From: Patescibacteria group bacterium
GTDB lineage: Bacteria > Patescibacteriota > Patescibacteriia > 2-01-FULL-39-33
DNA length: 64,000 nt
Direction: 5' to 3'
Assembly (NCBI GenBank): GCA_041671305.1
Contig: JBAZBX010000002.1
Location: forward strand, 5,193 to 69,192
Shown: positions 5,977 through 30,697 of the stretch, piece after piece
How the letters are laid out: the number at the start of each line of letters is the position of its first letter
Position numbering within the stretch: the first letter of the stretch is position 1
Translations under genes and position numbers: made by a program
Notes under the pieces: generated by a model
What the model was told of the DNA's origin: nothing
The model's database searches: none
Seen by the model: only the letters and a program-made list of their open reading frames with translations

Positions 5977-6049
5977 TGCGTCCGGCAGGAATTGAACCTG
6001 CGACCTGCAGCTCCGCAAGCTGACGCTCTATCCCCTGAGCTACGGACGC
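5977..6049 (-). tRNA. tRNA-Arg, anticodon read as GCG
   Basis: The reverse complement folds as GCGTCCG-TA-GCTC-AGGGGATA-GAGC-G-TCAGC-TTGCGGA-GCTGC-AGGTC-GCAGG-TTCAATT-CCTGC-CGGACGC-A. It has 7-bp acceptor, D, anticodon (one T.C mismatch at 27:43) and T arms. It is closely similar to bacterial tRNA-Arg. CCA is not encoded. Confidence 0.7.
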
Positions 6050-6054
6050 GAAAT

Positions 6055-6558
6055 TTACAATCTCAAGTAGCGACGCAATTTATCGGATATAGGCTCAATT
6101 TCCCTTTCCAAATCTTCTTTAAGATATTTGAGTAAAAATCTTCTAATTGATACCGCATCTTGCCCGTCCAATGGCACAACCAGCCTGCCCAGCAATGGAT
6201 TCCTAAATTGAAAATAGAGATTTTTAATGCCAAATTCCTCATAAACCATAAAAAAATGATCTACATCCCGGAAATAATTAAAATTCCTTCCCGCCTTTAC
6301 TCCTTCATTAGTGAGAACAAAATCAATCATTTCTGGATTACGATTATCATGAAGCAGAGTCACCAAATAAAACAAAATAAGAAAAATAGCAAATAATGGA
6401 TTGTTGGCAAAAAAACACCAGGCCACAAAAGCGGTTAAAAGCAAGAGAGAAATCACATACCACCAAATATCTTTGTGGTACTTGATATACTCGGGATACT
6501 CCCAAGAATACACGATCTGACTCAACTTTTGTTCGTTGTTGTTTTGTCCTCCTTCCAT
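6055..6558 (-). CDS. Hypothetical membrane protein with two TM helices and a C-terminal soluble domain
   Basis: A 167-aa ORF with hydrophobic segments WWYVISLLLLTAFVAWCFF and LFAIFLILFYLVTLL. It lies between two tRNA genes. No recognisable family motif. Confidence 0.4.
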   Translation of the reverse strand: MEGGQNNNEQKLSQIVYSWEYPEYIKYHKDIWWYVISLLLLTAFVAWCFFANNPLFAIFLILFYLVTLLHDNRNPEMIDFVLTNEGVKAGRNFNYFRDVDHFFMVYEEFGIKNLYFQFRNPLLGRLVVPLDGQDAVSIRRFLLKYLKEDLEREIEPISDKLRRYLRL

Positions 6559-10455: not shown

Positions 10456-11193
10456 CTATCCTCTTGCCATGGCAAAGCCATAAATCTTCTCAAAACCAGC
10501 CCCTTTTAAGGTTCTAGCGCATTCCTGCATTGTCGCGCCTGTTGTATAGACGTCATCTACCAATATAACTTCTTTGGGTAAATCCTCTTTCCAATTTATA
10601 TCAGAAATTAATTTAAAACAACCCTTTATGCTTTCTTTTCTTTTTTCTACATCCAACATTGCTTGGTGTTTACCATATCTCTTTCTGGCAATAATCTTAT
10701 CACAAATATTATTCCCTCTGACTTTATTCAAAATATTACCAATTATTATGGACTGATTAAATCCTCTCTCCAAATATCTGCGCTTATGCAAAGGCACCGG
10801 GATCAAAATAGCCTCCTCTGGCCAAAATCTTTCTCGTTCAAAATATTTCATAATCATCTTCTCCCAAACCTCACTGAGAGCATCGCAATAGCTATATTTA
10901 ATTAAGTGTATGACTTCTTTTACTAATTTATTATGATAATTAGACACTACCCACAAACCAGAGATTACCGACTCACCCACGCAATTCGGGCAAACCGTCG
11001 GAAAATCAATCTCCCTATTGCAAATCGGACAACAAAAATTATTTTTTATAATTATGGAGTCCAGACACTTGTCACAAATAAAATTATCAAATTCATGGCA
11101 ACCCAAACATCTTTTGGGAAACAACAAATCATGAGCTAATTCAGAAAGAGCAGTAATACTACTGCCAAATGGCATCGTCAACTTTCCATTCAT
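10456..11193 (-). CDS. comF: ComF family protein (ComFC-like phosphoribosyltransferase-fold competence protein)
   Basis: N-terminal double zinc ribbon (LLFPKRCLGCHEF...CDKC...CPICNREIDFPTVCPNCVG). C-terminal PRTase motif VILVDDVYTTGATMQECARTL. The true start is probably the Met of MPFGSS (about 11175). Confidence 0.7.
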   Translation of the reverse strand: MNGKLTMPFGSSITALSELAHDLLFPKRCLGCHEFDNFICDKCLDSIIIKNNFCCPICNREIDFPTVCPNCVGESVISGLWVVSNYHNKLVKEVIHLIKYSYCDALSEVWEKMIMKYFERERFWPEEAILIPVPLHKRRYLERGFNQSIIIGNILNKVRGNNICDKIIARKRYGKHQAMLDVEKRKESIKGCFKLISDINWKEDLPKEVILVDDVYTTGATMQECARTLKGAGFEKIYGFAMARG

Positions 11194-11743
11194 TGCCGAC
11201 TTTTATAAATGATAATTTTAAGTTTTTGTATGAAATAACCGGCTCTAATCCATTTCCGGTTGAAATCGTTCTCTGAGCTTGCACCACAATAATGGCGCTA
11301 CTGACTTCGGAACTGATTAAATCTGCACTCAATCCCCTGGTAGTTATTCCCTGGAATGTATCTACACTGCTGGTAGACGCTCGTTCCATGGCTATGGCAT
11401 CGTTTATGGTTTTCTGCATTTTGTCACTCATAAATGGCTTTAAGTCATCAAGATTTTTGAATTTCTGATCTGTAGAGTAACTTCCATATCTTTCCGAAAA
11501 AGAAAGCGCCAATTGCTTAAGTCCCAAAGGATATTTTTTTTCTTCAGCCACACGTACCGGACTAGAGACTGGAAGTACGGCGGAACCATTGCCAGTTGAA
11601 ACTGTTTGTGAATTATTATTATTCTGAGAATTAATTGGTTGATTGACGTTTTTTGTACCAAAGATAAGCCAAATAATAAACGCCAGTAAAACTATTACCG
11701 CTACGACCAACAAAGTAATGATAATTCTTTTTCTATTATCCAT
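11159..11743 (-). CDS. Membrane-anchored exported protein, possibly a VirB8/TcpC-like T4SS component
   Basis: Single N-terminal TM segment IITLLVVAVIVLLAFIIWLIF, a Ser/Asn-rich linker, then an approximately 120-aa domain ending in beta-strand-rich LKLSFIKVGNEWKVDDAIW (NTF2-like feel). The gene lies directly downstream of the VirB4 gene. The family assignment rests on position and architecture only. Confidence 0.3.
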   Translation of the reverse strand: MDNRKRIIITLLVVAVIVLLAFIIWLIFGTKNVNQPINSQNNNNSQTVSTGNGSAVLPVSSPVRVAEEKKYPLGLKQLALSFSERYGSYSTDQKFKNLDDLKPFMSDKMQKTINDAIAMERASTSSVDTFQGITTRGLSADLISSEVSSAIIVVQAQRTISTGNGLEPVISYKNLKLSFIKVGNEWKVDDAIWQ

Positions 11744-11759
11744 ATTTAATAATATTAGC

Positions 11760-13700
11760 TTAAATTAATTTTTTCTCTTCTTCCGGCGTTTGTTCTTGAG
11801 CCAATGACTCATCAAATTCTTTCTTGGCCGCTTCAATTTCCAACAACTGCCTTGGATCAGAAGTAATTAATTGATCTTCAGAGTATGATGCTACCACTTT
11901 GATAGCGGCGTGCTTCGCTCCGGCAAAAAATATTCCTTCGCCTACCCCGCCTTCCAAAAGCAAATATTTTTCTCCTTCGGTCAACATGAAAGTTTTTTGA
12001 ATCAGACTTATAGCCGCCGGAGATTGTTTGAGAAGCAATTGAAGAGATGAATTATTTACAATCGCCTGACCATAGGGTGAAGTCAAAAAGTCATTTACGT
12101 CTTGGGTGATAGTGGTTACTCCGAGATAATACTTACGACAACGCTTGACTAAGGCAAAAATAAATTTAGCCGAATCTTCTCTTTGCATCAGCCACCAAGC
12201 TTCATCAACAATCAAAATCCTTTTTTTCATCTGAGATCTGACTACATTCCAGATATAATTAACAATAGTATAAATTGCCAGCGGTTTGAGCTCATCTTCC
12301 AAGTCTCTGACACTGAAAACCACCAACTGATTGTTCATCTCCACATTGGTCGGCTGATTGAGTAATCCGGCAAAAGTGCCTTCGGTATATTTCTTGAGCC
12401 TGAGTGAAATATCTGCCGCTCCTTCCATACCTTCCAAAATCTCCTGAAAATCCTGCAGAATTGGCGGCTCAATTTTGGTTAAATCAGCATTAGCCGTGAT
12501 GTCTTTCTTGGCATAAGTCTCCAAAAGCGCTCTATCAATAATAGAATCTTCTTCATAAGTGACATTACCGATCATCAGTCTTATCAATCCTTTGACCGTA
12601 ATTACTCCGCTTCGGATAATATCTTCCGCTTTTGAATCCTCACCCATGGCGCGAGGCAAATCAAACGGATTAATCTTGCTTTCAGAATTAAGCGAGATAT
12701 CCACATAAGTGCCTCCGACAGCATCACACAAATGCTTGTATTCTCTTTCCGGATCTATAATTATCACTTCCGTGCCAAACATCAAACTTCTAAGTACTTC
12801 CAGCTTGATGGCATATGATTTTCCGGCGCCGGAAGTGGCAAAAACTACCGCATTGGCATTTTGCAATGAGAAACGATCAAACAAGATTAGGCTGTTATTG
12901 TGCCTATTTATGCCATAAAGGATTCCCTTATCAGAAGACAAATCCGAAGACACAAACGGGAAAGAACTTGCTGCCGGCGAAGTGTTCATATTGACCAGAA
13001 TATTTAACTCGTCAAAAGCTAGTGGCAAAGTGGAATTAAACCCCTGTTCCGATTGATAAAATACTCTCTTGGAATAAACCAGATGCGAACCGAAAAAATT
13101 CTCTATCCTCTCCGAGACTTGATCCAAATCTTCCAGCTTCTTGGCATAAAGAGTGACATACAAGGCGGTTTGAAAAAAATGCTCCACGCCCTGAGTCAAG
13201 TCGTCTCGGAGTTTTTCCATATCACGGAGGGCGGTTTCTGCCAGAGGATCCCTGGGCGCTCCTTTTTCTGCCGAGGAGATAAGTCCGGCCTCCACATTTC
13301 CCACTTTTTTCTTGAGTTGTTTAAGGATGACTGGAGTTTTGACAGGGTAGAAATAAAACGACATGTCGGCCACCACATCCATGTTGATAATCGGCGCAAA
13401 CCAGCCAATGGAAATATATCGCGGATATTGCACCACAAAAATAGTCCTGACAAACATCTCGCCAAGCTTGATATGCGAAGAAGTCACCTCCAAAGCCGCC
13501 GGCGCAATCAAATCTCTAACCGAAACTACGCCCTGGCGATAAATCCTTTCTTCTTCCAATAGTTCCTGAGCGGAAGCAATTTGTTCCTGTTCCAAAAACT
13601 TCTGTTGTTGGGGCGTCAATTTTGGCACCACAACAGCTTCCGGCTGAGGCAAGTTACTTTTGTTTATATCTTGAGGATCAAACATAATTATTTTCTTCAA
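11760..13700 (-). CDS. virB4: Type IV secretion/conjugation ATPase, VirB4/TrbE/CagE family (C-terminal ATPase portion)
   Basis: Walker A VFATSGAGKSYAIK. Walker B RILIVDEAWWLM. Conserved VirB4 blocks (IIDPEREY, ITQDVNDF). The track start is a TTG; an ATG (MFDPQD) lies 5 codons in. Confidence 0.85.
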   Translation of the reverse strand: MKKIIMFDPQDINKSNLPQPEAVVVPKLTPQQQKFLEQEQIASAQELLEEERIYRQGVVSVRDLIAPAALEVTSSHIKLGEMFVRTIFVVQYPRYISIGWFAPIINMDVVADMSFYFYPVKTPVILKQLKKKVGNVEAGLISSAEKGAPRDPLAETALRDMEKLRDDLTQGVEHFFQTALYVTLYAKKLEDLDQVSERIENFFGSHLVYSKRVFYQSEQGFNSTLPLAFDELNILVNMNTSPAASSFPFVSSDLSSDKGILYGINRHNNSLILFDRFSLQNANAVVFATSGAGKSYAIKLEVLRSLMFGTEVIIIDPEREYKHLCDAVGGTYVDISLNSESKINPFDLPRAMGEDSKAEDIIRSGVITVKGLIRLMIGNVTYEEDSIIDRALLETYAKKDITANADLTKIEPPILQDFQEILEGMEGAADISLRLKKYTEGTFAGLLNQPTNVEMNNQLVVFSVRDLEDELKPLAIYTIVNYIWNVVRSQMKKRILIVDEAWWLMQREDSAKFIFALVKRCRKYYLGVTTITQDVNDFLTSPYGQAIVNNSSLQLLLKQSPAAISLIQKTFMLTEGEKYLLLEGGVGEGIFFAGAKHAAIKVVASYSEDQLITSDPRQLLEIEAAKKEFDESLAQEQTPEEEKKLI

Positions 13701-14403
13701 GTTTTAATTTATCAACATCTCCTAATTTCTCGCTACGTGAGACTACGGGATTATAAGTATTGTAGAATAATTCTATCAGCGATTGAGTATCCAAAACCGT
13801 CGCTCTCAGCCCCATGCCGGATAATCCGGAGAGAATCTTGTCCAGCAAAGTGAATAAATCCCTATGCCTCTGGGAAAATTGCTTCTGTCCCAAACTGATG
13901 ATATTGGTCGGAGAAAGCACATCACCTGTTCTGGCCCAAAATCCTCTCTTGCCATTGGAAGACGGATCATAGGGCACGACTACATAAAACCTTTTGGTCA
14001 TGATATCGCCCAACTCAACCAATTGGGAAATATATTGATAATATTCTGAAATTTGTAATTTGAGCAATTCGTTGGTCTGAATTTTTTCCGCCTCTTTGAT
14101 AGAAACAAGATATTCATCCAAATCCAACTTTCTGGATTGAACCAAAATTTGAAGCGGTGAATCCAACAAATTCAAAAAACTGATATACCCAGAGATAATA
14201 GCCGACTGCTCGTCTTCCGACTTGAGGGCAAAATTAATACTGGAAACCAGAAGAACCGCCCGAAGCGTTCCGTCTTTGAGCACAACACAATCATCACGGA
14301 TTTCAGCGATATGCATCCGGCTTTGCGTGGATGGTGTCTTGTTGGTAGCAACTTTGTCTGGCATATTTTTATCTTTCTCCTGTGTATACCCCGCCCGTAT
14401 CAA
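13678..14403 (-). CDS. VirB4 N-terminal domain, encoded as a separate ORF overlapping the ATPase ORF
   Basis: IAEIRDDCVVLKDGTLRAVLLVSSINFALKSEDEQSAIISGYISFLNLLDSPLQILVQSRKLDLDEY matches the conserved N-terminal block of Gram-positive-type VirB4 proteins (PrgJ, TcpF, TraE). The TGA stop at 13678-13680 overlaps the downstream ATG (ATGTTTGA) in a different frame. Confidence 0.55.
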   Translation of the reverse strand: MIRAGYTQEKDKNMPDKVATNKTPSTQSRMHIAEIRDDCVVLKDGTLRAVLLVSSINFALKSEDEQSAIISGYISFLNLLDSPLQILVQSRKLDLDEYLVSIKEAEKIQTNELLKLQISEYYQYISQLVELGDIMTKRFYVVVPYDPSSNGKRGFWARTGDVLSPTNIISLGQKQFSQRHRDLFTLLDKILSGLSGMGLRATVLDTQSLIELFYNTYNPVVSRSEKLGDVDKLKLEENNYV

Positions 14404-14842
14404 TAATCAAGGCGAGTTCAGATATTTTTGAATTAGATAATGGTTGTCTGGCCATTTTTACAACCGGAATCCTGTGTTCTTTCGGTTTTTTGAGGCTGGC
14501 CTTAATCTCGTCTCTGGATATTTTCTTTTTCCAAACTTTTAACTTGGGATTTTTCAATGTAGAAATAAAATTAAGCAGAAAATAATGAAATGGCTGGCCA
14601 TTGATAGTGGCAAAAGCGATGACGATGGTAAGTGACAAAACGATTAATCCAGAAACTATAAATAATGAGAGATCAAAAATTTTATAAAAAATAAATATTA
14701 TCAACCCTCCGATAAGCATTTCAATAAATTGCCTCACGGTGATAGGTCCGATAACTTTGTCCTCTACGTCCAAAAATTGTGGCACGACTACTTGTTCCAT
14801 AAAAATTAATAAATTTAATAACCGATAATCAAGAAACAACAA
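14369..14842 (-). CDS. Small two-TM membrane protein, PrgI/VirB3-like candidate
   Basis: 157 aa. Hydrophobic helices LIGGLIIFIFYKIF and LFIVSGLIVLSLTIVIAFATI. It lies immediately upstream of, and overlaps, the VirB4 N-domain ORF, as VirB3/PrgI does in T4SS operons. Confidence 0.35.
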   Translation of the reverse strand: MLFLDYRLLNLLIFMEQVVVPQFLDVEDKVIGPITVRQFIEMLIGGLIIFIFYKIFDLSLFIVSGLIVLSLTIVIAFATINGQPFHYFLLNFISTLKNPKLKVWKKKISRDEIKASLKKPKEHRIPVVKMARQPLSNSKISELALIIDTGGVYTGER

Positions 14843-14894
14843 TCAAAGGAATTCTTATATTTTGGTTATTGTTTCTTGTGTTTTGATTATTATC

Positions 14895-16670
14895 TCAGTA
14901 TCTCAATTCGCTATTTAATTGCATCACAGCATCAAATTCTTCCAAGGATAACGTTGGTTTCCCAGATACTAGACGCTCTTTAATTATATCATCTATGCTC
15001 CGACCTTCTGTCATGCTAGTCTGCCCCAGCAATCTGTAAAACCGATTTACCTCATTGCCAAACCAGGCATTTATCCCCTCTATTCGACGCGCATATGATT
15101 CTTCCTGCAATAACTTTATTTTCTCTCTAATTGATCTCGTCGCCTCAACCGGATTGGAAGCCAAGCGACGAAAATCTATCAAAGTCATATCAGACAATTC
15201 TTCAATGGGGCCGGTCAGCTTTTTAGCTAATTTAATGCCGTCAACTATGGGCCTTCTAGTATTCTGAGATTCAAGCACCCTCTGAGGAATATTCTTCTGC
15301 ACAACATAAGGCGCAGGACGTGGCAAAGGAGCTGATTCTGACTGTTTGAGACTGACGGGAACACTGACAGGAATGGATTTTTCTTCAACAAAATTATTTA
15401 CTAAATTATTCTTCAAGCTTGCCTCAATGATATCATCATTACTTTCTAATTTTTTTTCTGAAATAAGTGAAGCAGGTGGAATATTGATTGGAACCGGTTT
15501 TTTAGCTTCCTCTTTCTTCTCTTCGCCGATGTCATCCAATTTTACGATTTTCGGTTTAACCATCAAATCTTCCGGCATGCGGAGTATGGGCAAACCATCT
15601 TCCTCATCCATAATCGGAGCTGGACTAACCTCTGCTGTAATTTTATTTTGCGAATCAAAACTATCTATCTTGGCAACTTCGGGCTGCTTCGGAGCAACGG
15701 GAACATTTTTTATCTCTGGTAATGTCGGAGGGACTGCTTGCTTGGACAACTCAGCCTGTGGCGAAACAATTGGAATAGGTTCTACAGAAACAGACACTGA
15801 AGAATTGGTTCCCTGTCTTCTCATCTCCTCTGCCCTTTTCTCTTGCAAAGTTTTGACCTTGACTTCGGCTTTTTCAAATTGCGGTATTTTTGGCTTAAAT
15901 TCTATCCTTTGTATCGCATCTCCGCCAGAAATATGATACTCCTTGAATGTTTCCTGCTCTTTCTTAATTAGTCCCAGCAATTCCGTCGCCTGCTCTTTGG
16001 TAAATTCCATTCCGCCTATCTTCTGACTCTTGGTCAAGGCTTCTATGCTCTCTATCTCATCACGCACGTCACGGAATCTTGAAATAATAATATTGGATAA
16101 TCTTTTGTGCAAGATCTCGTCACTTTCATTATACCCGAATTTGGAAATAATATCATCTGCCAAACTGTCATAATCAAGTTTATAGGTCTCCGCTTCCGGA
16201 ACAGCAATCTTTTTTAATTCTTCTTCATCCATGGTAGAAAAAGTCATGGACTTGGAATTATCCGTGATCACGGTCGGAGAACTATTTTGAGAACCAGCCG
16301 TTTCAGCCTTGATCAAGTAATCTTTGGGGGTCTTTTCTGATGGCTTTTTCTTTTTTATTTTTTTCTTCTTAACTGGTGGAGTACCGCCAAGACTTTTGAT
16401 AAATGATTCAACATCTCCCTTAATATATTTACGCATTGGCCAAAGCTGGTTTATGGCAATGGCCAAGGCTATTTGATTAATAGTCTCCGGCGACTGTTTG
16501 AGAAGACTCTTTCTTAAATTAGAAATTAAATCAGCTGAATTATCAGACCCCGCCCTCACTCTTGAACCACAAACATCAACATCATATAATTCCTGGTCAG
16601 ACAAATTAAAAGGAATAAACCAGGAATTAGTCTTCTTAATATCTTCAATTATTTTTGAATTTAATGACAT
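14895..16670 (-). CDS. Hypothetical Lys/Glu-rich protein (poly-Lys tract KKKKIKKKKP, coiled-coil-like) in the T4SS-like operon
   Basis: 591-aa ORF with no TM and no nucleotide-binding motif. It has a low-complexity Pro/Val/Lys-rich central region and a charged C-terminus. It sits between the VirB6-like and PrgI-like genes. Confidence 0.3.
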   Translation of the reverse strand: MSLNSKIIEDIKKTNSWFIPFNLSDQELYDVDVCGSRVRAGSDNSADLISNLRKSLLKQSPETINQIALAIAINQLWPMRKYIKGDVESFIKSLGGTPPVKKKKIKKKKPSEKTPKDYLIKAETAGSQNSSPTVITDNSKSMTFSTMDEEELKKIAVPEAETYKLDYDSLADDIISKFGYNESDEILHKRLSNIIISRFRDVRDEIESIEALTKSQKIGGMEFTKEQATELLGLIKKEQETFKEYHISGGDAIQRIEFKPKIPQFEKAEVKVKTLQEKRAEEMRRQGTNSSVSVSVEPIPIVSPQAELSKQAVPPTLPEIKNVPVAPKQPEVAKIDSFDSQNKITAEVSPAPIMDEEDGLPILRMPEDLMVKPKIVKLDDIGEEKKEEAKKPVPINIPPASLISEKKLESNDDIIEASLKNNLVNNFVEEKSIPVSVPVSLKQSESAPLPRPAPYVVQKNIPQRVLESQNTRRPIVDGIKLAKKLTGPIEELSDMTLIDFRRLASNPVEATRSIREKIKLLQEESYARRIEGINAWFGNEVNRFYRLLGQTSMTEGRSIDDIIKERLVSGKPTLSLEEFDAVMQLNSELRY

Positions 16671-16690
16671 TTTATCAAAAAATCTTTTAT

Positions 16691-19600
16691 TTAGGCTTGT
16701 TTAGGTTTAAAATTTTCCCACACCTCCGGATTATCCTGAAGCGCCTTCAGCATAATTTGTATCATTTTGAGATAAGCACTATCACCAGCGTCAACATAAC
16801 CATACATGCCCTTTTTAATCTTAAATTCTTTCATGATCTTTTCTCTAATTACCTCTAATTCCGCATCACTCAACTCATCTGCTTTTTTGCCATTACTGCC
16901 AGAACCAATGGCATTCCAAAGCAAATTAGTGGCTGCTTCATTACTTTTGTGTTTAGCCGCATTTCTGCGATAATTATATAATTTTGCTCCATTGGATTTA
17001 AGAGTAAAAGATTGAACTAATTTCAACGCACTGGCCATGGAACCCTTATTGTCACCCTCAGCCGGCGGAGGACCCATTTGTATGTTACCAAAATCAGATA
17101 CTGACAAACCGCCGATAAAAGAACCAACCATTTTATCTTCAAGAATTTTCATATCGGCATCATAATTAGTCCGGGCATAAAAATCTCCAGCCGTCTCCGC
17201 TAGTTTTTTCCTTTCCGCTAATTGTTCAGCCATGGCAATTAAATCAACCTTAGTACTACCTGTACTGACATGTTCTCCGCCCAAGCCAAAATTATCAGTT
17301 AAACGTTTATATTCCGCATCATAATTAGCCAACGCGTTTCCATTCTTATCGAACTCTTCCATAGAAGGCATAATGCCGTTATGAGCTGCGGCATACTCTT
17401 TCCTATGCTCATCTAATCTTTGCGCCCGATTCATGGTTGCGTCCACGAAAGCTTTCTTTGACAAAACTTTCTGATCTTCTATGGAACCCCTAATCGTCTT
17501 CATGGTGGATGCGCCACAAACATCACTTACATTTTCATAAATATCAGCCATGCCTTTCTGTATAGCCGCCCTCAATTCACCAGCCTCAGTGCCTTTTCCA
17601 GCTTTCTCTAATTGCTTAACCTCAGAAATACGCTCCTTAATACGACTAGAAATTTCACTTGCATTCTGAGTAACCAAATCCGCCAAAATATCCCTGCTTT
17701 CTTCGTTCATTGGCTTGTCACTGGAAGAATCATAAACAAGATGACTAAGTTGCTCTGTGCCAACAAGTCTATTTTTTAATAAAGCATTTCCAATAGTCAA
17801 AGTATTATCTTTATCTACTAAACCACTTTCCGAATCAACGGTCAATAAACTTCTAAGTTGTCCGAAGTCTAATTGTTTTCTAATTATTTCTTTGATTCCC
17901 TCATCTTGGAATTGCGCGAGGGTATTGGCAAGCGCTTTAGGATCAGCATCATGGAACCCATACATATATCTAATGAAAGAATTGATATCGGCTTTTTTTC
18001 CATTCTTCTTATATTCCTGCTCATCCGGTTCCAGCATAAAAGTATCAAATAGTTTTTGTAAACGACCATGTTCCTTCTCTCCTCCAGTATCAATCTTTCT
18101 AACAGCCTTATCTATATCATAGGTTCCAGACATAACTCCTTCCCGTAAATCCTTTTTACTGGTAGTATCCAAAGCTCTAGCCTGATGTCTAAAATATTTA
18201 TCCTTTAGATCACCAATTATTTTAGAATTGGCGCCGTTTAAATTAGTTTTTGTAAACAACTCTCCGAATACTTGGTTGGCTCTATTTTCTAAATTTTTAT
18301 CTAATGTAGGATTGGCAATAACCCTTCTGATGAGCTCTGGAGCAACTGCCATCTGCTGATCTATATTCCCCTTTTCAGCCATAGCAACGAGTTCTTCAGC
18401 GGTCATATCTTCTATTCTCTTTCTATTCACCAAAGCAGCATTACGCGCGGTTTCTTCATTTCGCTTTGTTCTAGCGCTCTTCATATTGGCAGTCATACGA
18501 GCAAAAGGCCTAGACAATAATGTACGCGCCAAAGGCACTTTATTAGCAAGCTTAAAACCAGTTCTAGCCAATCCTTCTCCTATTAATAATCTATCATTAA
18601 TTCCAGTAGCAATAGCTCCGCCCACGGCTCCAACGCCCCGTCCTATGCCTTTCGTCGCTCTCCAAGGCATGGCCTGGGCTCCCTTTCTGGCCTTATTTAA
18701 AAAACTCAAACTGCTTCCTGCCCAGGAAGCGCCGACAGCGCCGGTTTTTTGTCCCATCACCAGTGAAGCTACCAACATGCCAATAACCAAAGCAAAATTG
18801 ATTATACCCTCAGTGGACATTGCATTGGATAATACTATCATTTGTTTTGTGGATGATGTATTATCCACTATCTTATTACTAGCCCCTAATCCATTTATTA
18901 CATTTGCATCCTGATTTTTAGTAGTATTTCCACTAAATCCCATAATTACAAAGGAAATCCAAAGGAAAAATAGCATAATAGGCCCGACAATCAAATTTTT
19001 GCTCATCTCTGTCCACCATTGGCTGGCATACTGCTCGCCCTTTTTGAAAGTGGTAAGAAGGAAGGGCAAAGGAGAAAGCACGGTAAGAAACAAAAGCACC
19101 ACAATTCTATATATCAGTATGGCAATAATGGCCACCAGAACAGCAGCGGCCACCACACTAGCGATAAGCGCATAAACTAGAGCGGTAATAACATTTCCAA
19201 AACCTATTTCCTGACCTTCTACAGAAGTGTTAGCGGCACCATAATCCATATAACTACCCTTATCGCCGCCCATAAGATTATACATATCCGGAATACCCAG
19301 AGCAGAAAGAATAATATTGCCACCAGTAATTCCTTGGAGAGGCGCGGCGAAAGCCAGCATCAAAACTTGCGAAACATCAATCATCAAACCGCAAAACATC
19401 TTAGAAAAGTTGATCAATATGGCCATCACCAGTAATTTGGGCAATAATTCCTTTATTTGCCACTGCGGAATCTTGATAATGGTACCAATAGCAATAGCGA
19501 TAAGGATGACGATAAAAAAGTTATTGCACAGATCCCTGATCACCTTCCAGCCGTTGGTAACCGCATCCAAATGAGTATTTATAGGGTATGACATGACGGA

Positions 19601-20095: not shown

Positions 20096-20111
20096 TGTCT
20101 TTTAATTTAAT

Positions 20112-23100: not shown

Positions 23101-26100
23101 GTGTCATCTTCAACTCCGATATTTTCTGATATGACTATATTGCCGGAATTAAGTTGCAGATAAGAACCTCCGCTTTCCGCTTTCTGAGGATCAGAAACCA
23201 CCTTGAACAAACTAGAATTCCAAGTAATACTATTCATTTTGGGCTTAACTGATTGACAAGCCTTGGCGGGAGTGGAAGAACAAGCCAAACTGCCGGGAAC
23301 CCAGCCGATAGGATCACTGGATTCTCCAAATGTCATCTCAAAATCACCATTGACTACTTCAGAAGTTCCGCCAAGTTGATTCATAGCATCATACGGATAG
23401 TTGATAGTACCGCTAACCTTACTGTCAACCTCAGAAACCAGAGGATTAGTCATGACGTAGCCGGTTTTATTTTTATCTATCTCTGGTGAATAAGTCGCGA
23501 CAGTACTGGAACTATTTACTTGCCTATTGCAAGAACCGTCATCAGCAAAAGATTGACACATGCTAATATCCAAGCATTTATCATTTTCTGTAAAATTAAA
23601 CTGGGAATCATTTTTGGATTTCTGATAAGTATTGCAAGTCAGCCAATTACTGCAAGTCCTGTCGGCACCGGCTGAAACTATCATATTGGCATTGTTGGTT
23701 TGAATTCCAGCAATCGGCGAAACCCCTCCTCCCGCGACTGACGAAGTGAGATCCGCGTTATAAGTGAGCTGGGAATCAAAAATTAAATTCTTCCAAAATC
23801 TATCTCCCGTAGAGGTGGCCGAATAATCAATCTGTCCCCTATCATTTACCAGAACGCAACCAGTTCGGAAATTAACCTGGCCGTTGCAGGATCCGGAATT
23901 GACTGAACTGCTTAGTTTATAATAAACTCCGGCCAAAGTGACCTGAGAAGTTGAGCTACTGACACCAACAGCACAATCCTTGTTTTCTGCCGAGGAAACA
24001 TAGAAAAGTCTAGAATCAATTTTTGAAGATTGTTGGAAAGGATCTATTATCAAAGTCGCTCCACTACAGGAAGACAATAAACTGATGGCCGAGTCTGAAT
24101 TATACAAAGTATTCGTCTTGATGGAGACGGTATTATCGGATTTTATTTTTAATTTGGTATAGACATTTGTCAACGGATCAACATATTCGTTGCATCCGCT
24201 CTGAGCGCCCTGGCAAATTCCCGCCCATCCCTGATAATCAGTTCTTTCTACTCCAGTGACATTATCAACTATGCCTATTGGTTGGATTTTGGAAGACTGA
24301 TTCTCATAACCAGTGCCAAAGGTTTGATTGGCGGTAGTAATACATGGAATACTAGTACCCTGCTGAACCCAAGAACCGGTTGAGCCTGCTCCTTTGACAT
24401 ATTCACATACTTTGCCATGAGGATCTTTAAAATAAGAAAATGAATTCTGACCCGCATATTCCTCACACCATAATTCATTAAATTTACAAATATCCGTTTT
24501 ATATCGCTCTGGAAGATTTTTCAGATAAGCCGTGCTATAACCAGTAACCTCGTCATATTTATTGATTATTGGCAGGCCGTAAGACGTGCATCCCATTTCC
24601 TTGCTGGAACAAGAATATTTAGAATCCGCCACCAGATAAACGGTATTGTAAGCGGGAACAGATATAGATGAAGTAGCCGGATCAGAATTAAAAATCTCAC
24701 CTCCCGGATAATCATAATTATGGGTATCCACTAATTTCTCACAACCCGCCGCTTCCGCGCGACAAAGCTTAGCAAATGATTTGAGATAAGCAACGTTGCC
24801 AAGCCTATCCTTGTATGCGGAACAGCCAAGCATATTGCCGGGAACACAGCGATGATTATCTACTCCTGCAGTCGTATCAGCGCAAGTCTGAGTAGCCGTA
24901 GGATTATTGTATAATGTCTGTCCATTGCCATCGCCTAAATTATTATCGCAAGAAAAAGGCGTGTACCATGAATTTTCTACCAAATAAACACTATTTTGCA
25001 CCTCTTTCAAAATAATATTATTGAGATAAATATTTACTCCCTGAGGAATATTGAATTCCAAATACTGTTCAGCTGAGGAATCCAAGTTCCAATGGACAAA
25101 AACCGGTCCCAAATCGTATTTTCTCCATTCAGAGCTTACCTGCGCGCGTGACAGGCTAAGATTAGAATTATCCACCTTGGCCATGGCAAAAAAGTCATTC
25201 ACCGAGCCAGCCGAACCGAACTTGATAGAATTAAAAGCAAATGAGACATTGCCTTTCGCCCAGAAAGACAAAACGTATGTTTTATTTTGAGAAATATTTA
25301 CCAAGTGTTTCAGGGTGGAAGTAGAAGCGGTATTTGGATTGGTCAAAGAATGACCGCCGACAAAAGTGGAAACATTACTTAGCGTGGCTGTGGCATTGGA
25401 ATTAACGCCTTGATCATAGAGCCAGAGAGCCGAAGAAGTTGTAAGATCAAAATTACTATTGAGAATATTACGCACATTGTTGCCGGTATTGCCGGTATAA
25501 GCGCGGCAACCTTTCATTTCGGCCGAGCACGTCTTCCCTTCTCCAGGAATCGCCATATAAATACATTCATTATTGCCATTCCAGAAACCATTATGAGAAA
25601 CACAATCCTTGGCAGAATCAATATTATTGGTTTGAGTCAAAGTTCTTCTGTACGGATGGCAATTATCGGAAATGGTAATTGTCTGAGAAAGCAGACGATA
25701 TGACTTAGCGCCGGTCGCATCATAAAATTCCCGACAATCCGGATTTACGGCCATATCTTCTTGTGCGCAATAACCGTCATCAAGAGATTCATCGGTATTG
25801 TCCACACAAAGAGGCTGACCCACACTGCCCGTAGAAGTAGAGTAAGCTAAATCCGTGCAAGGCTTGTTGGAAGCTAAAATATTTGATTTTTTTAATTTGT
25901 ATACTTTTAATTGATAGCCGGCCGTGTCATCGCCTTCCCAAGTGTAGTAAGTGCCATCATTAATCCCCGGTTTTTCACAAACCTGGAAATTAACATAATA
26001 TTCCCTATTTTCCGCTCCTTTGGATAAATCATCCAAATTTGTAAATTCATCGCATCCGGCCAAATCCGCAGAACAATATTTAGGCACACTGTCGGCGATG

Positions 26101-29100
26101 AATTGATTGTATTTAGAAGAGGTAAAATCCGTTTCTTCCTGCTTGTAGACTTGATAACCCACGCACTCACCGGGACAGACATCCAAAGTTTCTGCTACGC
26201 CAGGAACAGCCGGATCCCCGTTGGTAGGAGTATATAATTCACAATCCACTTCGTCTGCCGTACAAACTGGCGCGTATTTAGAGCAAAGTGTGTTTCTATT
26301 CTGCAATACGGAATTAATATTGGTATAATCCGCCCAAGCACCGGTGGTTGAACTCTTGTAGCAATTATAATAATCCGGGGCTTTTTTGAGATAAGCCAAC
26401 TGGCTTGACGGCCTATACGACGGATTGTATTCTGAATAATCGCTTGGAGTTTCAATATTATAAGTCACTTCCTCCAATTGAATATCATCAAAATAAATAT
26501 TGCCTCCCGCATAGTTACTGCCAAGTTTCAAATCAAAATTATAATCTGAACTCATGAAAGCATCCTGGCCTACAGTAAATGACTTGCTCAGCCTCTGCCA
26601 AGAATTAGTTATATTGGCATTGGCACTAGCAGAAACGATAGAATTTTCTCCCTGATATAATCCAATTGAGGAATTGGCAGTTGAAGGCAAATAAACCCAT
26701 CCAGAGAGAATGTATTTCTTTCCTTTTTCAAGAATGGCATTATGACTAGCCTGAGTTAATTTTTCAGCACAACTACCACTACTTGTGCATTGCAATCCCA
26801 AAGAATGCGTTCCGCTATGGATAAAGGTACTAGCCACGGCGCCAGTTCCGGCATCAGAGGCCCATCCCCCATCCAGAGAGAATTCAAATCCGCCGTTATA
26901 AAACAAGTTGCTTCCCAATCCTGCTTTCGTCCTGATAAATTGAGAACAACCATCATTACTGCCATCGCAAGTCTGGACGTTTCTATTAAAATAAATATCG
27001 GCTGAAGTATTTGACACCGCTGGCATATTCAAAGAAACTGAATTTTGCTTACAATCTTCAATTTGTTTTTTGAATTCAAAATTATCAAAATAAGCTTTGG
27101 CCGTAGTGCCTGCCTTGGTAATAATCTTAATAGTGGCCGTGGCATAATTGTCAGCATCAAAATACATATAATAATCATTCCATCCAGCACCAATGCTGGT
27201 AAGCGGAAGATTAATCGCTAATTGATTATCCCGATAAATTTGAACATCTACCTCTCCAGCGCTGAAATAATCAGCCCTGGCAGAAAATTTAAATTGATAA
27301 GTAGATGTGGCGTCCACTTGAATATCTTTCAAGGTTATAATTTCACTGTTGGGAGCTGCCGTTTGCGGAGCGTTGTTGGCGGTTACCACCAAAACAGCAG
27401 AATTATCCTTGCCCTTATTTGAATCCCAATAATCCCTGGTATATGCATCCATGGAAGATAATTCTTCTAACCAAAACTGGGGCAAGAAAGAATTGGTGGC
27501 CTTCTGATTGAAATTTTGATTTAAGCTGGACAAAACATCAGCCGTTTCCAAGCAATTTTCCAAATTACAGCTTGAAGCGCCATAGGGAATGGTGCAACTT
27601 CCCTCAAAAGAACAGGTTTTGGTGGAAGAATTATAAGTACAATGATTATCTCCGGTACAAGACGTAGGAGAACAGGCAGAAGCCATGGTTACGATATTTG
27701 CGGTGCTACTGAGGTCGCTAACCAGATGCGACTCAGAAATATTTAAATTTGGGGTAGCAGTACATCCGCTGGGATCATTACAAATTCCGGCAACTAAATC
27801 AGGAGCTAAACTTCTCCATATTTTGGAAATCGGATCAAATAAATTACTATACCACCTGCAACCGGCATTTTGTGAATTACAATCTCTATAATCCAAAGAG
27901 TTGGAGAGGTAAGACTGCGCCGAACCCTGACGACTCTTGAAAGTCTGACAGGTATTATTTCTGGAATCGCACGTTGTGCCGAAATTCCAAAATCTTCTTT
28001 CTTCTGTGCAATACCCATAGGAAGAGCAGGAGCCATCGGCATTTTCCTTGATGCATTGCTGTTCATCCGCGCAATACTGATCCCTATTCATGGTTCCCTC
28101 TTGAGAATTCTGAAAGGTATTATGATCGCCGTATCCCTGTCTTCTGCAATAAACTTCCGGCGCCTTAAATACCCAATAAGGATCAACTAGGCCGTAAAAT
28201 TTGCTTCCAGACTTATCAAATTGATCCATAATATCGCCCAAGGTTATATTTTCCTTGCTGTCCTTGAGATAATTGGCGGCTATTTCCCAGCCTATTGGCA
28301 CAATCCTGTATTTTCTCAAAATAAGAATGGTTCTATAGGTAATGGCGGTGGTATAATTTTGCGAGTTAGCATTATTGGGCACAAATAACCTGTTTTTGAA
28401 ATCATCGCCGACCTGCCATACTTGTTTTTTGTCTTTGATGTATGAAGAAAAAGCCTGGTCAATTACGCAGTCAGTCGGCCCTGGATTATTTTTGGCATCA
28501 TCCGGACAAGTCATCAGCTTGCTCAAAATGTCATAAGGACCGCCAATGGCATATTCGCTTTGTTTTAATTTATTGAATCTGGCCTCGGCTCCGGCCGCAC
28601 CCTCAGAATATGGCTGAGCGTCTGGGTTTAAAAGACTGGAAAGATCAGGCAAAGGCAATCCGGATAAAAAGCTATTGTTGTTATTGCCTGACGATCCGCT
28701 AGTAAACAATCCTGACTTGAAATTATTAAGCAATTGTCCAACCAAAGTTTGAGCAAAGGTATTAACAAAATCAACTATAGTTCCGGTAAAAACTTCTTCC
28801 GCCAAAGTGGACTTTTCGGTGACGGCCGGAAGCATATCCTTCACCACATCGCCAGGCGTCAAAACTTTATTGGCAAAATCAGTAACACTCTTCCAACCGG
28901 TCGGATCCACCACTTTTTCTCCCACTTTGATCTTATCGGCGACATAAGCGATTGATTCGCCACTGAGCTTCAAATAAACAGAAATGTCATTCTCCCCTTC
29001 ATTCAAAGAATTATTGTACTCAAAAGCAAAATTCGGATTGGTAATGGCGGTGTTCCAATTGGTCATCATCTTGGAAAAAGTACAACGCACCTGCCTAGGC

Positions 29101-29756
29101 TTTTTCCAATTTATACTGGTTTGTATAGACAAGCTAAGAGTCGGACTTTTACATAAATCCACTCCATATCTTTGTCCCACCTGATCAATAAAATCTCCCA
29201 AAGCGCTGTCCCCCAAATTCTGCAAATACGCTCCCCAACCCTCTGTGATAAATAATGGTTTTTGTCCCTTACCACCGGAAGCAATCCAAGTCGCCGTGTC
29301 AGCCGCTAACTGCTGAGACATCAGAGAGAGAGATGATTTAAAGGCGGAAGCGAGAGCCACTCTTCTGGTTTCTTTTTTCAAGTCATCAGAAACTTTTTTG
29401 GCATATTCTTTCCATTGGCTACGATTCGTCAAATCGGCATTATTCTTTTGGGCTTCATCTATACAAGCCATTTGTGCTTGCGTGGCCGCTAACTGAGCCT
29501 GTCCGCAATCCGTGGGAGAGGCGCAAGGCTTAGCCACAATGCTTTGGCATTTTGCCACAGCCGCCGAAGCCGCCTTATCCGCCTGATCCGGCAAACCGAC
29601 TTCTCCGCTGTTTCCAGCTGAAAACCAGTCAGCAGATTGGTCGGCGATATCTGCTTCCGCTCTTGCCATTATTGGAAACGCGGACAAAGTAAAAAACATC
29701 AACAACGCAAAAATAGCTACCGAAAAATAAATTTTATTGTGAAAATTAAACTTCAT
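20112..29756 (-). CDS. Giant (3214 aa) cysteine-rich exported protein with carbohydrate-binding-module-like (CBM4/9, ConA-like) domains
   Basis: One uninterrupted 9.6 kb ORF. N-terminal signal/anchor IYFSVAIFALLMFFTLSAFPIMA. More than 150 Cys, with a recurring module GCxx(Y/F) (GCRAYTGNTG, GCSAYKDRLG, GCTSYGLP, GCNEYVDPL, GCSQFIRT, GCDEFTNL, GCRWYSNLF...). NGGFE/NGDFE motifs (YNGGFEFSLDGGW, VNGDFEMTFGE) and the YFDNFEF/YFDDIQLEEV strand ends are typical of CBM_4_9 domains. Confidence 0.6.
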   Translation of the reverse strand: MKFNFHNKIYFSVAIFALLMFFTLSAFPIMARAEADIADQSADWFSAGNSGEVGLPDQADKAASAAVAKCQSIVAKPCASPTDCGQAQLAATQAQMACIDEAQKNNADLTNRSQWKEYAKKVSDDLKKETRRVALASAFKSSLSLMSQQLAADTATWIASGGKGQKPLFITEGWGAYLQNLGDSALGDFIDQVGQRYGVDLCKSPTLSLSIQTSINWKKPRQVRCTFSKMMTNWNTAITNPNFAFEYNNSLNEGENDISVYLKLSGESIAYVADKIKVGEKVVDPTGWKSVTDFANKVLTPGDVVKDMLPAVTEKSTLAEEVFTGTIVDFVNTFAQTLVGQLLNNFKSGLFTSGSSGNNNNSFLSGLPLPDLSSLLNPDAQPYSEGAAGAEARFNKLKQSEYAIGGPYDILSKLMTCPDDAKNNPGPTDCVIDQAFSSYIKDKKQVWQVGDDFKNRLFVPNNANSQNYTTAITYRTILILRKYRIVPIGWEIAANYLKDSKENITLGDIMDQFDKSGSKFYGLVDPYWVFKAPEVYCRRQGYGDHNTFQNSQEGTMNRDQYCADEQQCIKENADGSCSSYGYCTEERRFWNFGTTCDSRNNTCQTFKSRQGSAQSYLSNSLDYRDCNSQNAGCRWYSNLFDPISKIWRSLAPDLVAGICNDPSGCTATPNLNISESHLVSDLSSTANIVTMASACSPTSCTGDNHCTYNSSTKTCSFEGSCTIPYGASSCNLENCLETADVLSSLNQNFNQKATNSFLPQFWLEELSSMDAYTRDYWDSNKGKDNSAVLVVTANNAPQTAAPNSEIITLKDIQVDATSTYQFKFSARADYFSAGEVDVQIYRDNQLAINLPLTSIGAGWNDYYMYFDADNYATATIKIITKAGTTAKAYFDNFEFKKQIEDCKQNSVSLNMPAVSNTSADIYFNRNVQTCDGSNDGCSQFIRTKAGLGSNLFYNGGFEFSLDGGWASDAGTGAVASTFIHSGTHSLGLQCTSSGSCAEKLTQASHNAILEKGKKYILSGWVYLPSTANSSIGLYQGENSIVSASANANITNSWQRLSKSFTVGQDAFMSSDYNFDLKLGSNYAGGNIYFDDIQLEEVTYNIETPSDYSEYNPSYRPSSQLAYLKKAPDYYNCYKSSTTGAWADYTNINSVLQNRNTLCSKYAPVCTADEVDCELYTPTNGDPAVPGVAETLDVCPGECVGYQVYKQEETDFTSSKYNQFIADSVPKYCSADLAGCDEFTNLDDLSKGAENREYYVNFQVCEKPGINDGTYYTWEGDDTAGYQLKVYKLKKSNILASNKPCTDLAYSTSTGSVGQPLCVDNTDESLDDGYCAQEDMAVNPDCREFYDATGAKSYRLLSQTITISDNCHPYRRTLTQTNNIDSAKDCVSHNGFWNGNNECIYMAIPGEGKTCSAEMKGCRAYTGNTGNNVRNILNSNFDLTTSSALWLYDQGVNSNATATLSNVSTFVGGHSLTNPNTASTSTLKHLVNISQNKTYVLSFWAKGNVSFAFNSIKFGSAGSVNDFFAMAKVDNSNLSLSRAQVSSEWRKYDLGPVFVHWNLDSSAEQYLEFNIPQGVNIYLNNIILKEVQNSVYLVENSWYTPFSCDNNLGDGNGQTLYNNPTATQTCADTTAGVDNHRCVPGNMLGCSAYKDRLGNVAYLKSFAKLCRAEAAGCEKLVDTHNYDYPGGEIFNSDPATSSISVPAYNTVYLVADSKYSCSSKEMGCTSYGLPIINKYDEVTGYSTAYLKNLPERYKTDICKFNELWCEEYAGQNSFSYFKDPHGKVCEYVKGAGSTGSWVQQGTSIPCITTANQTFGTGYENQSSKIQPIGIVDNVTGVERTDYQGWAGICQGAQSGCNEYVDPLTNVYTKLKIKSDNTVSIKTNTLYNSDSAISLLSSCSGATLIIDPFQQSSKIDSRLFYVSSAENKDCAVGVSSSTSQVTLAGVYYKLSSSVNSGSCNGQVNFRTGCVLVNDRGQIDYSATSTGDRFWKNLIFDSQLTYNADLTSSVAGGGVSPIAGIQTNNANMIVSAGADRTCSNWLTCNTYQKSKNDSQFNFTENDKCLDISMCQSFADDGSCNRQVNSSSTVATYSPEIDKNKTGYVMTNPLVSEVDSKVSGTINYPYDAMNQLGGTSEVVNGDFEMTFGESSDPIGWVPGSLACSSTPAKACQSVKPKMNSITWNSSLFKVVSDPQKAESGGSYLQLNSGNIVISENIGVEDDTPYYLSFWVNTTNIAGSGDGTNLPYAEVRYLFLNGEGNALERNSNGSYNIITINSGPQLFGPKWESADTLKINQGTPWKHVVYRVTPPSGATSMKIALFSLAPSLEKGFDNTKLGGYTMWDNIGVNTILDTDGTEVSQIARTCRVYPEADAPGCRYNKDNTQYYGQYGYCILKDPAINSQQCLQWWPVDNIAGESVNDYSPYYQERMPLYYCVSKAEKKMNFSNFTLNANAANLGKYASVMDLVESHTGQEVKFYPFSDVPASMRTLLRYPNVYRFFYSGLYVGFDKKNFFPMPLFVFMKPYESFGIAGELPFYFGTNAPEAESMYSAENLAASCTNNGGSSCGVCAGGISSGETTPCNPLTNYRENTSVVDIHLNSERGSKECPKIFDLNGNNYEECLPLSRTFCGIGDSGSECQQDDSCNDFELANTCNYLASHNDYDSSGFLIIKDKSLWGSITTALEDIGKFIMSPFTMTQDDYWGGWGMFGFNIAKFPVAFGLPWHTLSALKDMSGIVSGLIEWINDETVAIGYVAFKIVTDTDPNYSGQASDPHPDVQGDILGYAFGSGGTAASDKAYASGVIGGISSNGFTAGYCDKVVQVVDSSGQQKAYSARTSPGSSYKTNDTDCVVNALYGDMFETVADGLSLFSNSNMSSCTDAGCGGGLSEYVVGNPNQCFDHSMYCLRLNGSTPRNYCGNYVGLTNSNTLGLKCCGNSVSDEKLNNSFSSVCNSDGSLNSNYFCSGGTYIYANIYHYNRYNYNTDQNPFASIIAPITGQYPNEWDSKDDVPYNQPLFYEENMSKTDIGQSRMGQVHDVDELKKLFAKSYGVWEWRANKDGSPIEGGYYSLVSSMDWSVPTENCGGISKREAHEASTTLSTSARMCFNYPEIKHVTTTNLLATTTDPAELRKVKSNSPIKLEFTAEIDPEQLPIRAYSVSWGDDTTTTFSGTALLSRPNPSDPFVLYHYYGDIAGTGNIIIKVKDNWNYEGAKTWNTETGSLN

Positions 29757-29779
29757 TAATATTTAACTTATATCGTAGC

Positions 29780-30697
29780 TCACTTAACCGTGGAAGTAGC
29801 CGTTGAATTTAATTTATCTATAAACATCTGTTTTAATTCGTCATCAGAAATGGAATCTAGCAGGGTCTTGGGCGCGCCGTTTTTGATCATTAATTCTTTG
29901 ATCTGAGCGCCAGTCAAATTTTTGAGATCATCTATTGAACTTATATTTAATCCTGAGGTATCCAGAGTTTTTGATCCGGTGGAAGTACTAACTGCCGTTG
30001 GAACAGAAACCCCATTGGAAGTTATCTGACTAGCCAAATCGGGATTTTCACTCAAAACTTCCTGATAACCATTCAAAATATCCTGATCAGTCATAGCATC
30101 TACCTCGGCCTGAGTTAATCCGCTCTGAACCAAAATTTTTCTAATATCGGAAATATTAATCTGCGGAGTTGACTGCGTAGGAGGACTAGCCTGAAAAGTG
30201 GGAACTGTTCCTGCCGAAGAAGTGGAGACGCTGGAGCCATTACCAAAGCAAGTTTTGCCTTCCGGACAATTCGGATCTGTGCCCTGTTTAACTTCCTGGC
30301 CATCATTTATGCCATCGCCATCGCTATCGGTCAAGTACGGACTGGTATTATAGACGTAGGATTCATCATAATCCGAAAGCCCATCACTGTCCGTATCCTG
30401 AGCTTTTAAGGCATTAATCGCCTCTTGTTGAGGATCAGTTTCAGTGGAAAGAGCAGAATTTCCCTTCACCAAAAAGCTAAACGGATTATTGATATTGCTG
30501 GCCAGTTGATAATACCCGAAAAACAAAGCAAAGACGCAAACAACCAAAATAACAACGGAATTTACCCTTTCCCTTTTTCTAATACTGTTTAAATTGTTTA
30601 TCTTATCATCCGAAATGTTACTTTTGCCATATGTATTTTGATTCCTGAGATTATTTGTGGCAAAATCATTTCTCTTGGATGGCCTGTCACCTTCCAT
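29780..30697 (-). CDS. Membrane-anchored protein with thrombospondin-type-3-like Ca-binding repeats, first gene of the operon
   Basis: TM segment VVILVVCVFALFFGYYQL. DTDSDGLSDYDE and DSDGDGINDGQEVKQGTDPNCPEG (DxDxDG...C motifs as in TSP3/OmpA-like repeats). C-terminal duplicated module of about 35 aa (LTQAEVDAMTDQDIL / LTGAQIKELMIKNGAP...DDELKQMF). Confidence 0.4.
   Translation of the reverse strand: MEGDRPSKRNDFATNNLRNQNTYGKSNISDDKINNLNSIRKRERVNSVVILVVCVFALFFGYYQLASNINNPFSFLVKGNSALSTETDPQQEAINALKAQDTDSDGLSDYDESYVYNTSPYLTDSDGDGINDGQEVKQGTDPNCPEGKTCFGNGSSVSTSSAGTVPTFQASPPTQSTPQINISDIRKILVQSGLTQAEVDAMTDQDILNGYQEVLSENPDLASQITSNGVSVPTAVSTSTGSKTLDTSGLNISSIDDLKNLTGAQIKELMIKNGAPKTLLDSISDDELKQMFIDKLNSTATSTVK

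Follow-up and report, generated by a model that had tools for sequence, protein, structure and literature searches.

Type IV secretion systems (T4SSs) in Patescibacteria were first noted in TM7x (McLean et al. 2020, PMC7427843). Transposon sequencing (Tn-seq) of the Saccharibacterium S. epibionticum then revealed that it cannot grow as an epibiont without the T4SS and the accompanying pilin array; comEC, comF and dprA are dispensable in this organism, and transformation needs comEC (Wang et al. 2023, PMC10633639). A phylum survey placed the Patescibacteria VirB4 clade as sister to MPF_FATA and described TrsD, PrgI, VirB6 and pilin arrays (Quinonero-Coronel et al. 2025, PMC12102498). The same survey found few VirB8 homologues, almost all of them in class ABY1, noted comF, recG and radA at ABY1 T4SS loci, and detected relaxases in only 103 Patescibacteria genomes (PMC12102498). 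These systems and their "extended VirB6" proteins have been reviewed (PMC12857230). T4SS-mediated import of DNA or other macromolecules in Patescibacteria, with Helicobacter pylori as the precedent, has already been proposed (PMC11665869, PMC12102498), and an ABY1 genus is reported to have both ComEC and a pseudopilus for competence (PMC11809585). Here, we analyzed a 64-kb stretch of contig JBAZBX010000002.1 (assembly GCA_041671305.1), called the window below. On this chromosomal stretch of an ultrasmall Patescibacterium of class ABY1 lies a type IV secretion operon of nine genes.

The nine open reading frames (ORFs) of the operon lie on the minus strand and run from 30697 to 10456, with intergenic gaps of no more than ~90 nucleotides (nt) or with overlaps. 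All of the ORFs that a preliminary description had assigned to this cluster were found at their minus-strand positions. In order of transcription, and with the tRNA gene that comes next, they are as follows (aa, amino acids; TM, transmembrane).

29780..30697, minus strand: TSP3-repeat bitopic membrane protein, operon gene 1 (Pfam TSP3_bac, E 4.6e-10)
20112..29756, minus strand: giant 3214-aa protein with a CBM_4_9 domain
16691..20095, minus strand: 1134-aa extended VirB6/TrbL-like protein, so called by family transitivity and a fold match
14895..16670, minus strand: p591, an orphan 591-aa protein and conserved operon component
14369..14842, minus strand: PrgI/VirB3-like protein with two TM segments (PF12666)
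13678..14403, minus strand: TrsD/TraC-like 241-aa protein (NF041427)
11760..13685, minus strand: VirB4 ATPase (NF045971, P-loop_TraG)
11159..11743, minus strand: p194, a VirB8-like bitopic 194-aa protein
10456..11193, minus strand: ComF/ComFC-family protein, the final operon gene (DZR_2, TIGR00201)
10203-10292, minus strand: tRNA-Ser(UGA), directly after comF (ARAGORN and Rfam)

VirB4 scores 357.9 bits against NF045971, the profile of the CD1110-family VirB4 (cut-off, 325), over profile positions 177-729 of 752, and it matches P-loop_TraG with an E of 2e-30. Its translation shows a Walker A motif (SGAGKS) and a Walker B motif (ILIVDEAWW). By these matches, the protein is the signature motor of a T4SS, of the monoderm CD1110/MPF_FATA type. 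Its relatives in Buchananbacteria, Falkowbacteria, Komeilibacteria and unnamed Patescibacteria share 70-90% identity with it. Against TIGR00929 (VirB4_CagE) it reaches 116 bits with a cut-off of 643, which places it outside the ComB4/MPF_T type, and against the CedB profile NF041017 it reaches 42.4 bits with a cut-off of 700, over residues 456-533 only.

The 241-aa ORF and virB4 had been taken for a split VirB4 ATPase. The ORF matches TrsD (NF041427) at E 2.7e-8 and aligns with N-terminal regions of VirB4 profiles (Mbov_0397, positions 96-233; CD1110, positions 17-102); relatives of the protein carry the TraC-like domain PF26593. Together, the TrsD-like gene and virB4 span a full VirB4. For comparison, we used a sample of 80 species-level genomes or loci named Buchananbacteria, Falkowbacteria, Komeilibacteria or Patescibacteria. 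Since VirB4 homologues are all ~600-670 aa long (120/120 among the matches listed) and a separate upstream gene is present in 78 of the 80 loci, what looked like a split is the normal TrsD-plus-VirB4 state, which has been described for Patescibacteria (PMC12102498). A broken or pseudogenized VirB4 was ruled out, the two-gene state being universal in the relatives; the ORF is a TrsD-like protein and the motor is not broken.

Three further proteins resemble the membrane platform of VirB systems, and the tentative assignments made for them in the preliminary description have held. Scoring 32.3 bits against PF12666 (cut-off, 27), the PrgI-like protein passes the Pfam threshold; its hydrophobic region spans residues 31-85. 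The 1134-aa VirB6-like protein of the window has no significant Pfam match of its own. In its family, Pfam TrbL/VirB6 (PF04610) matches 12 of the 44 members (best E, 1.1e-8), and homologues carry precomputed PF04610 and PF19590 matches; a sequence-level PDB search with the family returned nothing meaningful. Besides a signal/TM segment and a small beta domain, the protein has a helical TM core (residues ~130-480) and a charged, helical C-terminal extension of ~650 aa. The TM core was modeled by AlphaFold2 (AF2) with a per-residue confidence (pLDDT) of 80-97, and Foldseek matched it to TrwI/VirB6 of R388 with a probability of 0.84-0.89 (E 0.04-0.3); this was the sole natural membrane protein found with high probability. 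As modeled, the protein with its long tail fits the "extended VirB6" type (PMC12857230).

The gene for p194 adjoins virB4. In the protein, a disordered linker joins an N-terminal TM helix to an extracytoplasmic NTF2-like domain; this is the architecture of the VirB8/TcpC/PrgL proteins. The window protein has no significant Pfam match, and the sequence-level PDB search with its family gave nothing meaningful; the predicted structure supports a VirB8-like assignment and with it the earlier VirB8/TcpC call.

The arrangement of these genes is conserved in relatives, where a synteny check had been proposed. Across the 80 loci, trsD is present in 78, p194 in 76, prgI in 73 and p591 in 67. Upstream genes were counted in the 48 loci whose sequence extends at least 9 kb upstream: trsD, prgI and p591 are each found in 48/48, the VirB6-like gene is found in 38/48, and the core order p591-PrgI-TrsD-VirB4-p194 is kept in every one (48/48). 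Conservation of gene order to this extent is far beyond chance. In the gene tables of three relatives (L081, L082 and L085), all nine genes, the TSP3 gene and the giant among them, follow in this order. The claim of a T4SS-like operon is thus borne out by the VirB4, PrgI and TrsD profile matches and by the fixed gene order. In the closest loci, VirB4 is 80-83% identical, compared with 55-60% for RecG and 58-61% for RadA. That VirB4 is more conserved than these housekeeping proteins fits a gene of the core, vertically inherited set rather than a mobile one.

Scanning with Pfam covered the larger ORFs of the window, and all counts of absent genes refer to these. None of them encodes a VirD4-type coupling protein (T4CP), a relaxase, an integrase, VirB11 or ComEC, in agreement with the earlier remark that VirD4, VirB11 and a relaxase are missing from the window; VirB7/9/10 outer-membrane-core homologues were likewise absent from every scanned window ORF. 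The other scanned ORFs are housekeeping or envelope genes, among them ksgA, leuS, uvrA, femAB, a POR complex, RNase J, a tyrS/trpS-type synthetase, glyA and folD. The GC content is uniform across the window.

Three operon genes without a counterpart name are conserved in the lineage. The TSP3 protein spans the membrane once (residues 42-69); its outer part is rich in Ser and Thr, and its repeats are of the bacterial, calcium-binding TSP3 type. A 299-aa TSP3 gene occupies the same operon slot in L081. The giant protein has one N-terminal hydrophobic segment and one CBM_4_9 domain, is rich in S, N, G and T, contains 3.2% Cys, and has no PDB sequence match. With the 3098-aa protein in the same slot of L081 it shares 36% identity over ~2980 aa, and same-slot CBM_4_9 giants of 3760 and 3314 aa are encoded in L082 and L085, respectively; its C terminus is matched in 25 of the 48 loci with upstream sequence. 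The giant appears to be secreted or N-terminally anchored and is a candidate host-surface-binding component. The third protein, p591, has no TM segment, a variable middle rich in Lys, Pro and Glu, and a conserved C-terminal domain at residues ~460-591. This domain of ~130 aa retrieves 2234 clusters at 50% identity (E<=1e-3), and in the matches listed it lies at the C terminus of the protein. The gene sits between the VirB6-like gene and prgI in every locus whose context was examined. No Pfam, NCBIfam or PDB match was found for p591, even when searched as a 24-sequence profile; Pfam matches among 24 of its relatives were scattered, single-member and attributable to chance.

Two pilin genes are located ~8-10 kb from the operon and ~9-11 kb from virB4.

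120-1334, plus strand: VirB2-like pilin paralogue 1, with a lysozyme-like tail (PF18895)
1344-2411, plus strand: VirB2-like pilin paralogue 2 (PF18895)

These are the pilin-hydrolase paralogues that had been reported near the cluster. They match T4SS_pilin (PF18895) at 30.5 and 33.9 bits, with a cut-off of 26.6, and the C-terminal domain of the first matches Phage_lysozyme at E 1.3e-3, below the cut-off. The two probably supply this T4SS with its pilus and its wall-lysis function. As a separate observation, the paralogues share ~145 near-identical aa (AAKTETPKTESAPL...ITYSGDYAIP), and their N-terminal regions and C-terminal domains are unrelated, a pattern suggestive of duplication or conversion of the pilin core and exchange of the enzymatic tails.

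The best-supported reading of the locus is a non-conjugative host-contact pilus or conduit needed for epibiont life on a host, and as to the identity and general mode of the system we consider this reading quite probable. On this reading, the machine is not a DNA donor. By analogy with VirB systems, VirB3, VirB6 and VirB8 would form a platform in the single cell membrane, on which a VirB4 hexamer would dock. VirB4, with TrsD, would then power extraction of the VirB2-like pilins from the membrane and growth of the pilus. In Agrobacterium, pilus assembly does not require VirD4. Contact with the surface of the host cell would likely fall to the TSP3 protein and the carbohydrate-binding giant.

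Several points weigh against this reading. For the window protein, VirB6 is a call by transitivity from its family, joined by a fold match that is weak (E 0.04), and pilus formation is predicted from Pfam pilin matches only. The roles given to the giant, the TSP3 protein and p591 are guesses from position and composition. The one genetically tested Patescibacterium is S. epibionticum (PMC10633639). A T4CP may also sit elsewhere in the genome, since VirD4-like genes occur in many Patescibacteria, usually far from virB4 (PMC12102498).

For the main function of such a conduit, our estimates overlap. Protein export is below even odds; nucleic-acid import is about as likely or slightly less so; attachment as the only function is less likely than either.

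A protein exporter would deliver effectors or other proteins into or onto the host bacterium in order to extract nutrients. We hold this version tentatively and think it rather unlikely. It draws on the fact that non-conjugative T4SSs mostly export proteins (general knowledge; PMC12857230), on the effector delivery speculated for Saccharibacteria (PMC11665869, PMC10633639), and on the VirD4-like T4CPs found elsewhere in many Patescibacteria genomes (PMC12102498). However, the scanned window ORFs include neither a T4CP nor a recognizable effector gene, and the T4CP homologue is non-essential in S. epibionticum (PMC12102498). The N-terminal hydrophobic segment of the giant resembles a Sec signal or anchor, so that the giant would not need a T4SS to cross a single membrane.

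The case for an importer draws in part on ComF and on the genes downstream of it. ComF scores 27.7 bits against DZR_2 (double zinc ribbon; cut-off, 27) and has a phosphoribosyltransferase (PRTase)-like domain. It aligns with TIGR00201 over all 190 positions (1-190/190) at E 1.1e-26, yet with 94 bits against a curated cut-off of 233.55, and its assignment is thus a family-level call by E-value only. As had been stated, comF lies in the cluster: it is co-oriented with the other genes, and its start lies 17-35 nt inside the 3' end of the VirB8-like gene. The relatives L081 and L082 show this overlap as well. Beyond comF, the genes that lead to the pilins are as follows.

6055-6558, minus strand: 167-aa protein with two TM segments (o167), between comF and recG
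within 3914..6558, minus strand: tRNA-Arg (tRNA search)
3914-5962, minus strand: recG (Pfam RecG domains)
2338..3753, plus strand: radA (Pfam zinc ribbon, AAA_25/KaiC-type ATPase, ChlI/Lon_C)

Downstream genes were counted in the 38 loci with at least 9 kb of downstream sequence. Downstream of virB4, recG occurs in 30/38, radA in 26/38 and the 167-aa protein in 22/38; pilin genes lie within 10 kb in 21/38. At least one of comF, radA and recG is kept in 36/38. The 167-aa protein, hydrophobic at residues 30-73 and without a family match, travels with the comF-recG-radA-pilin block. The whole block, comF-o167-recG-radA-pilins, occurs in two orientations downstream of the VirB8-like gene. In orientation A, that of the window (16 loci), comF is adjacent to the operon in 16/16; in the inverted orientation B, with the pilins or radA first (27 loci), it is adjacent in 0/27. 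The two orientations are interspersed on a VirB4 neighbor-joining tree. An invertible segment was considered as the mechanism and rejected, as positions 1-12000 contain only short, AT-rich, chance inverted repeats. Since comF is adjacent in orientation A only, its co-transcription with the T4SS is not conserved, and since adjacency is limited to one of two orientations, it is no proof of DNA import. The block is bracketed by the T4SS operon and the pilins, and this bracketing alone could hold it in place.

In a ComB- or Ced-like importer, the pilus and a VirB3/6/8 channel, powered by VirB4, would take up host or environmental DNA; ComF would receive a single strand at the membrane, and RadA- and RecG-assisted recombination or nucleotide salvage would follow. 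We judge this unlikely, if worth keeping in view. DNA import has precedents in H. pylori ComB and in the archaeal Ced system. The overlap of the terminal comF with the VirB8-like gene, repeated in two relatives, the 36/38 loci with at least one of comF, radA and recG, and the absence of a T4CP or relaxase from the scanned window ORFs all speak for it. Patescibacteria also lack nucleotide synthesis (PMC11665869, PMC12102498), and because, in addition, Com is dispensable for growth of S. epibionticum, another uptake route is needed (PMC11665869, PMC12102498).

Against an importer stands, first, the split between 16/16 and 0/27 loci in the position of comF, and the linkage to comF, recG and radA has been reported for class ABY1 only (PMC12102498). 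Growth of S. epibionticum depends on the T4SS and not on comF, comEC or dprA, and its transformation needs comEC (PMC10633639). As an ABY1 genus is reported to have ComEC together with a competence pseudopilus (PMC11809585), the standard route exists as well. The window VirB4 falls in the conjugative monoderm type, with 42 versus 700 bits for CedB and 116 versus 643 for VirB4_CagE, and we saw no ComEA- or ComH-like DNA receptor in the locus. The idea of a ComB-like DNA-uptake machine stands in part: the T4SS components are there and no T4CP, relaxase or VirB11 was found in the scanned window ORFs, whereas DNA import is not established, given the orientation of comF and the FATA-type VirB4. A more specific proposal is that the operon with its overlapping comF is a route for nucleic-acid import from the host through the pilus and VirB3/6/8, feeding ComF, RadA and RecG, with the TSP3 protein, the giant and p591 as dedicated receptor or adaptor subunits; this we find more doubtful still. 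ComF, RadA and RecG are best described as conserved neighbors inherited with the locus, compatible with DNA import and not evidence for it.

A conjugative element, or the remnant of one, would be an integrative conjugative element (ICE) beside tRNA-Ser with its relaxase and T4CP elsewhere in the genome. The VirB4 belongs to the conjugative CD1110-type family and a tRNA-Ser gene directly follows comF, but the search of the window turned up neither repeats nor an integrase, a relaxase or a T4CP, the recG and radA neighbors recur in the 80 loci and are less conserved than VirB4, the GC content is uniform, and relaxases are known from only 103 Patescibacteria genomes (PMC12102498). This makes such an element very improbable, and for this copy an ICE integrated at tRNA-Ser is effectively excluded by the lack of mobile-element genes and repeats and by the conserved housekeeping neighbors. 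A chance arrangement of VirB4 and unrelated neighbors, to which the lack of significant Pfam matches in the window's own VirB6-like, p591, giant and 194-aa proteins might point, has practically no probability left and is refuted by the PrgI and TrsD profile matches, the TrbL matches in 12/44 family members, the fold of p194 and the 48/48 gene order.

The limits of the transcription unit can be read from the sequence. An extended -10-like motif, TGgTATAAT, at ~30726-30734 inside the 94-nt gap between ksgA and the TSP3 gene is a putative promoter element. A hairpin with a T-run at 10117-10130, past tRNA-Ser(UGA), is terminator-like by consensus match only and likely marks the 3' end of the operon transcription unit. 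The trsD stop overlaps the virB4 start (ATGTTTGA). From gene lengths in relatives and the window sequence, three start codons likely need correction: that of the VirB6-like gene to 20065 (1124 aa), of prgI to 14800 (143 aa) and of the TrsD-like gene to 14364 (228 aa). Window proteins are deposited at NCBI as locus tags WC244_00805 and WC244_00830.

Between o167 and the operon, a plus-strand block at 6581-10292 is bounded by tRNA-Ser(GCU) at 6581-6673 and tRNA-Ser(UGA) at 10203-10292.

6968-8623, plus strand: ice-binding-like protein
8657-9337, plus strand: DUF7507 protein with an LPNTG sorting signal
9390-10031, plus strand: sortase

Only one of the 80 related loci, L029, has this sortase/LPNTG block, likewise downstream of comF, and it looks like a lineage-specific insertion. 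Elsewhere in the window, the leucyl-tRNA synthetase (35399-38908, minus strand, 1169 aa) has a NUDIX domain inserted at residues 432-528 (E 1.4e-11) and a serine-hydrolase/alpha-beta-hydrolase domain inserted at residues 621-786 (E 3.7e-18), an unusual architecture. Many public records of the related loci (L001, L005, L006 and others) are third-party annotation (TPA) assemblies titled "uncultured Gammaproteobacteria bacterium"; their gene content is clearly ABY1-like, and the titles appear mislabeled.

No T4SS other than that of Patescibacteria is known to be essential for growth of the cell that carries it. Whether it imports host DNA or nutrients or exports effectors, the answer would explain how a very large branch of ultrasmall, biosynthetically poor bacteria lives on other cells. 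The window provides a clean, annotated ABY1 example, in which structure supports VirB8, family matches and fold support VirB6, and three conserved partners lack annotation; it could guide interaction modeling or experiments.

Compared with the monoderm conjugative MPF_FATA systems (the C. difficile CTn2 CD1110 type, pCF10 Prg, pGO1 Trs and pIP501 Tra), the window locus has no detected relaxase, T4CP, oriT or integrase, is fixed in the chromosome among housekeeping genes, and has VirB2-like pilins, which the Gram-positive systems lack. H. pylori ComB functions with neither VirD4 nor VirB11, and neither was found in the scanned window ORFs; ComB, too, is built from VirB2/3/4/6/8-type parts, and in H. 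pylori its partners are ComFC and ComEC. Unlike the window system, ComB is a diderm MPF_T-type machine with VirB7/9/10 and moves DNA across the outer membrane; the window system is monoderm-type, and its VirB4 is not ComB4-like. Crenarchaeal Ced (CedA/CedB) also combines a T4SS-related ATPase with a polytopic membrane protein, and it imports DNA across a single membrane, which makes it, mechanistically, the nearest precedent for import into a monoderm-like cell. It differs in taxon and accessory genes, and the CedB profile matches the window VirB4 far below the cut-off and over a short stretch. The closest system is that of the Patescibacteria clade, with the same FATA-type VirB4, separate TrsD, PrgI/VirB3, VirB6, VirB8 and VirB2-like pilins, the same chromosomal location with no relaxase (here, in the 64-kb window), and comF, recG and radA in the locus; nothing essential is different, and all seven characters that define membership were found. 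The locus is thus a well-checked member of an already known, published group, to which this analysis adds the structure-level VirB8 assignment (p194, in 76/80 loci), the conserved TSP3, giant and p591 genes, and the analysis of the block in its two orientations.

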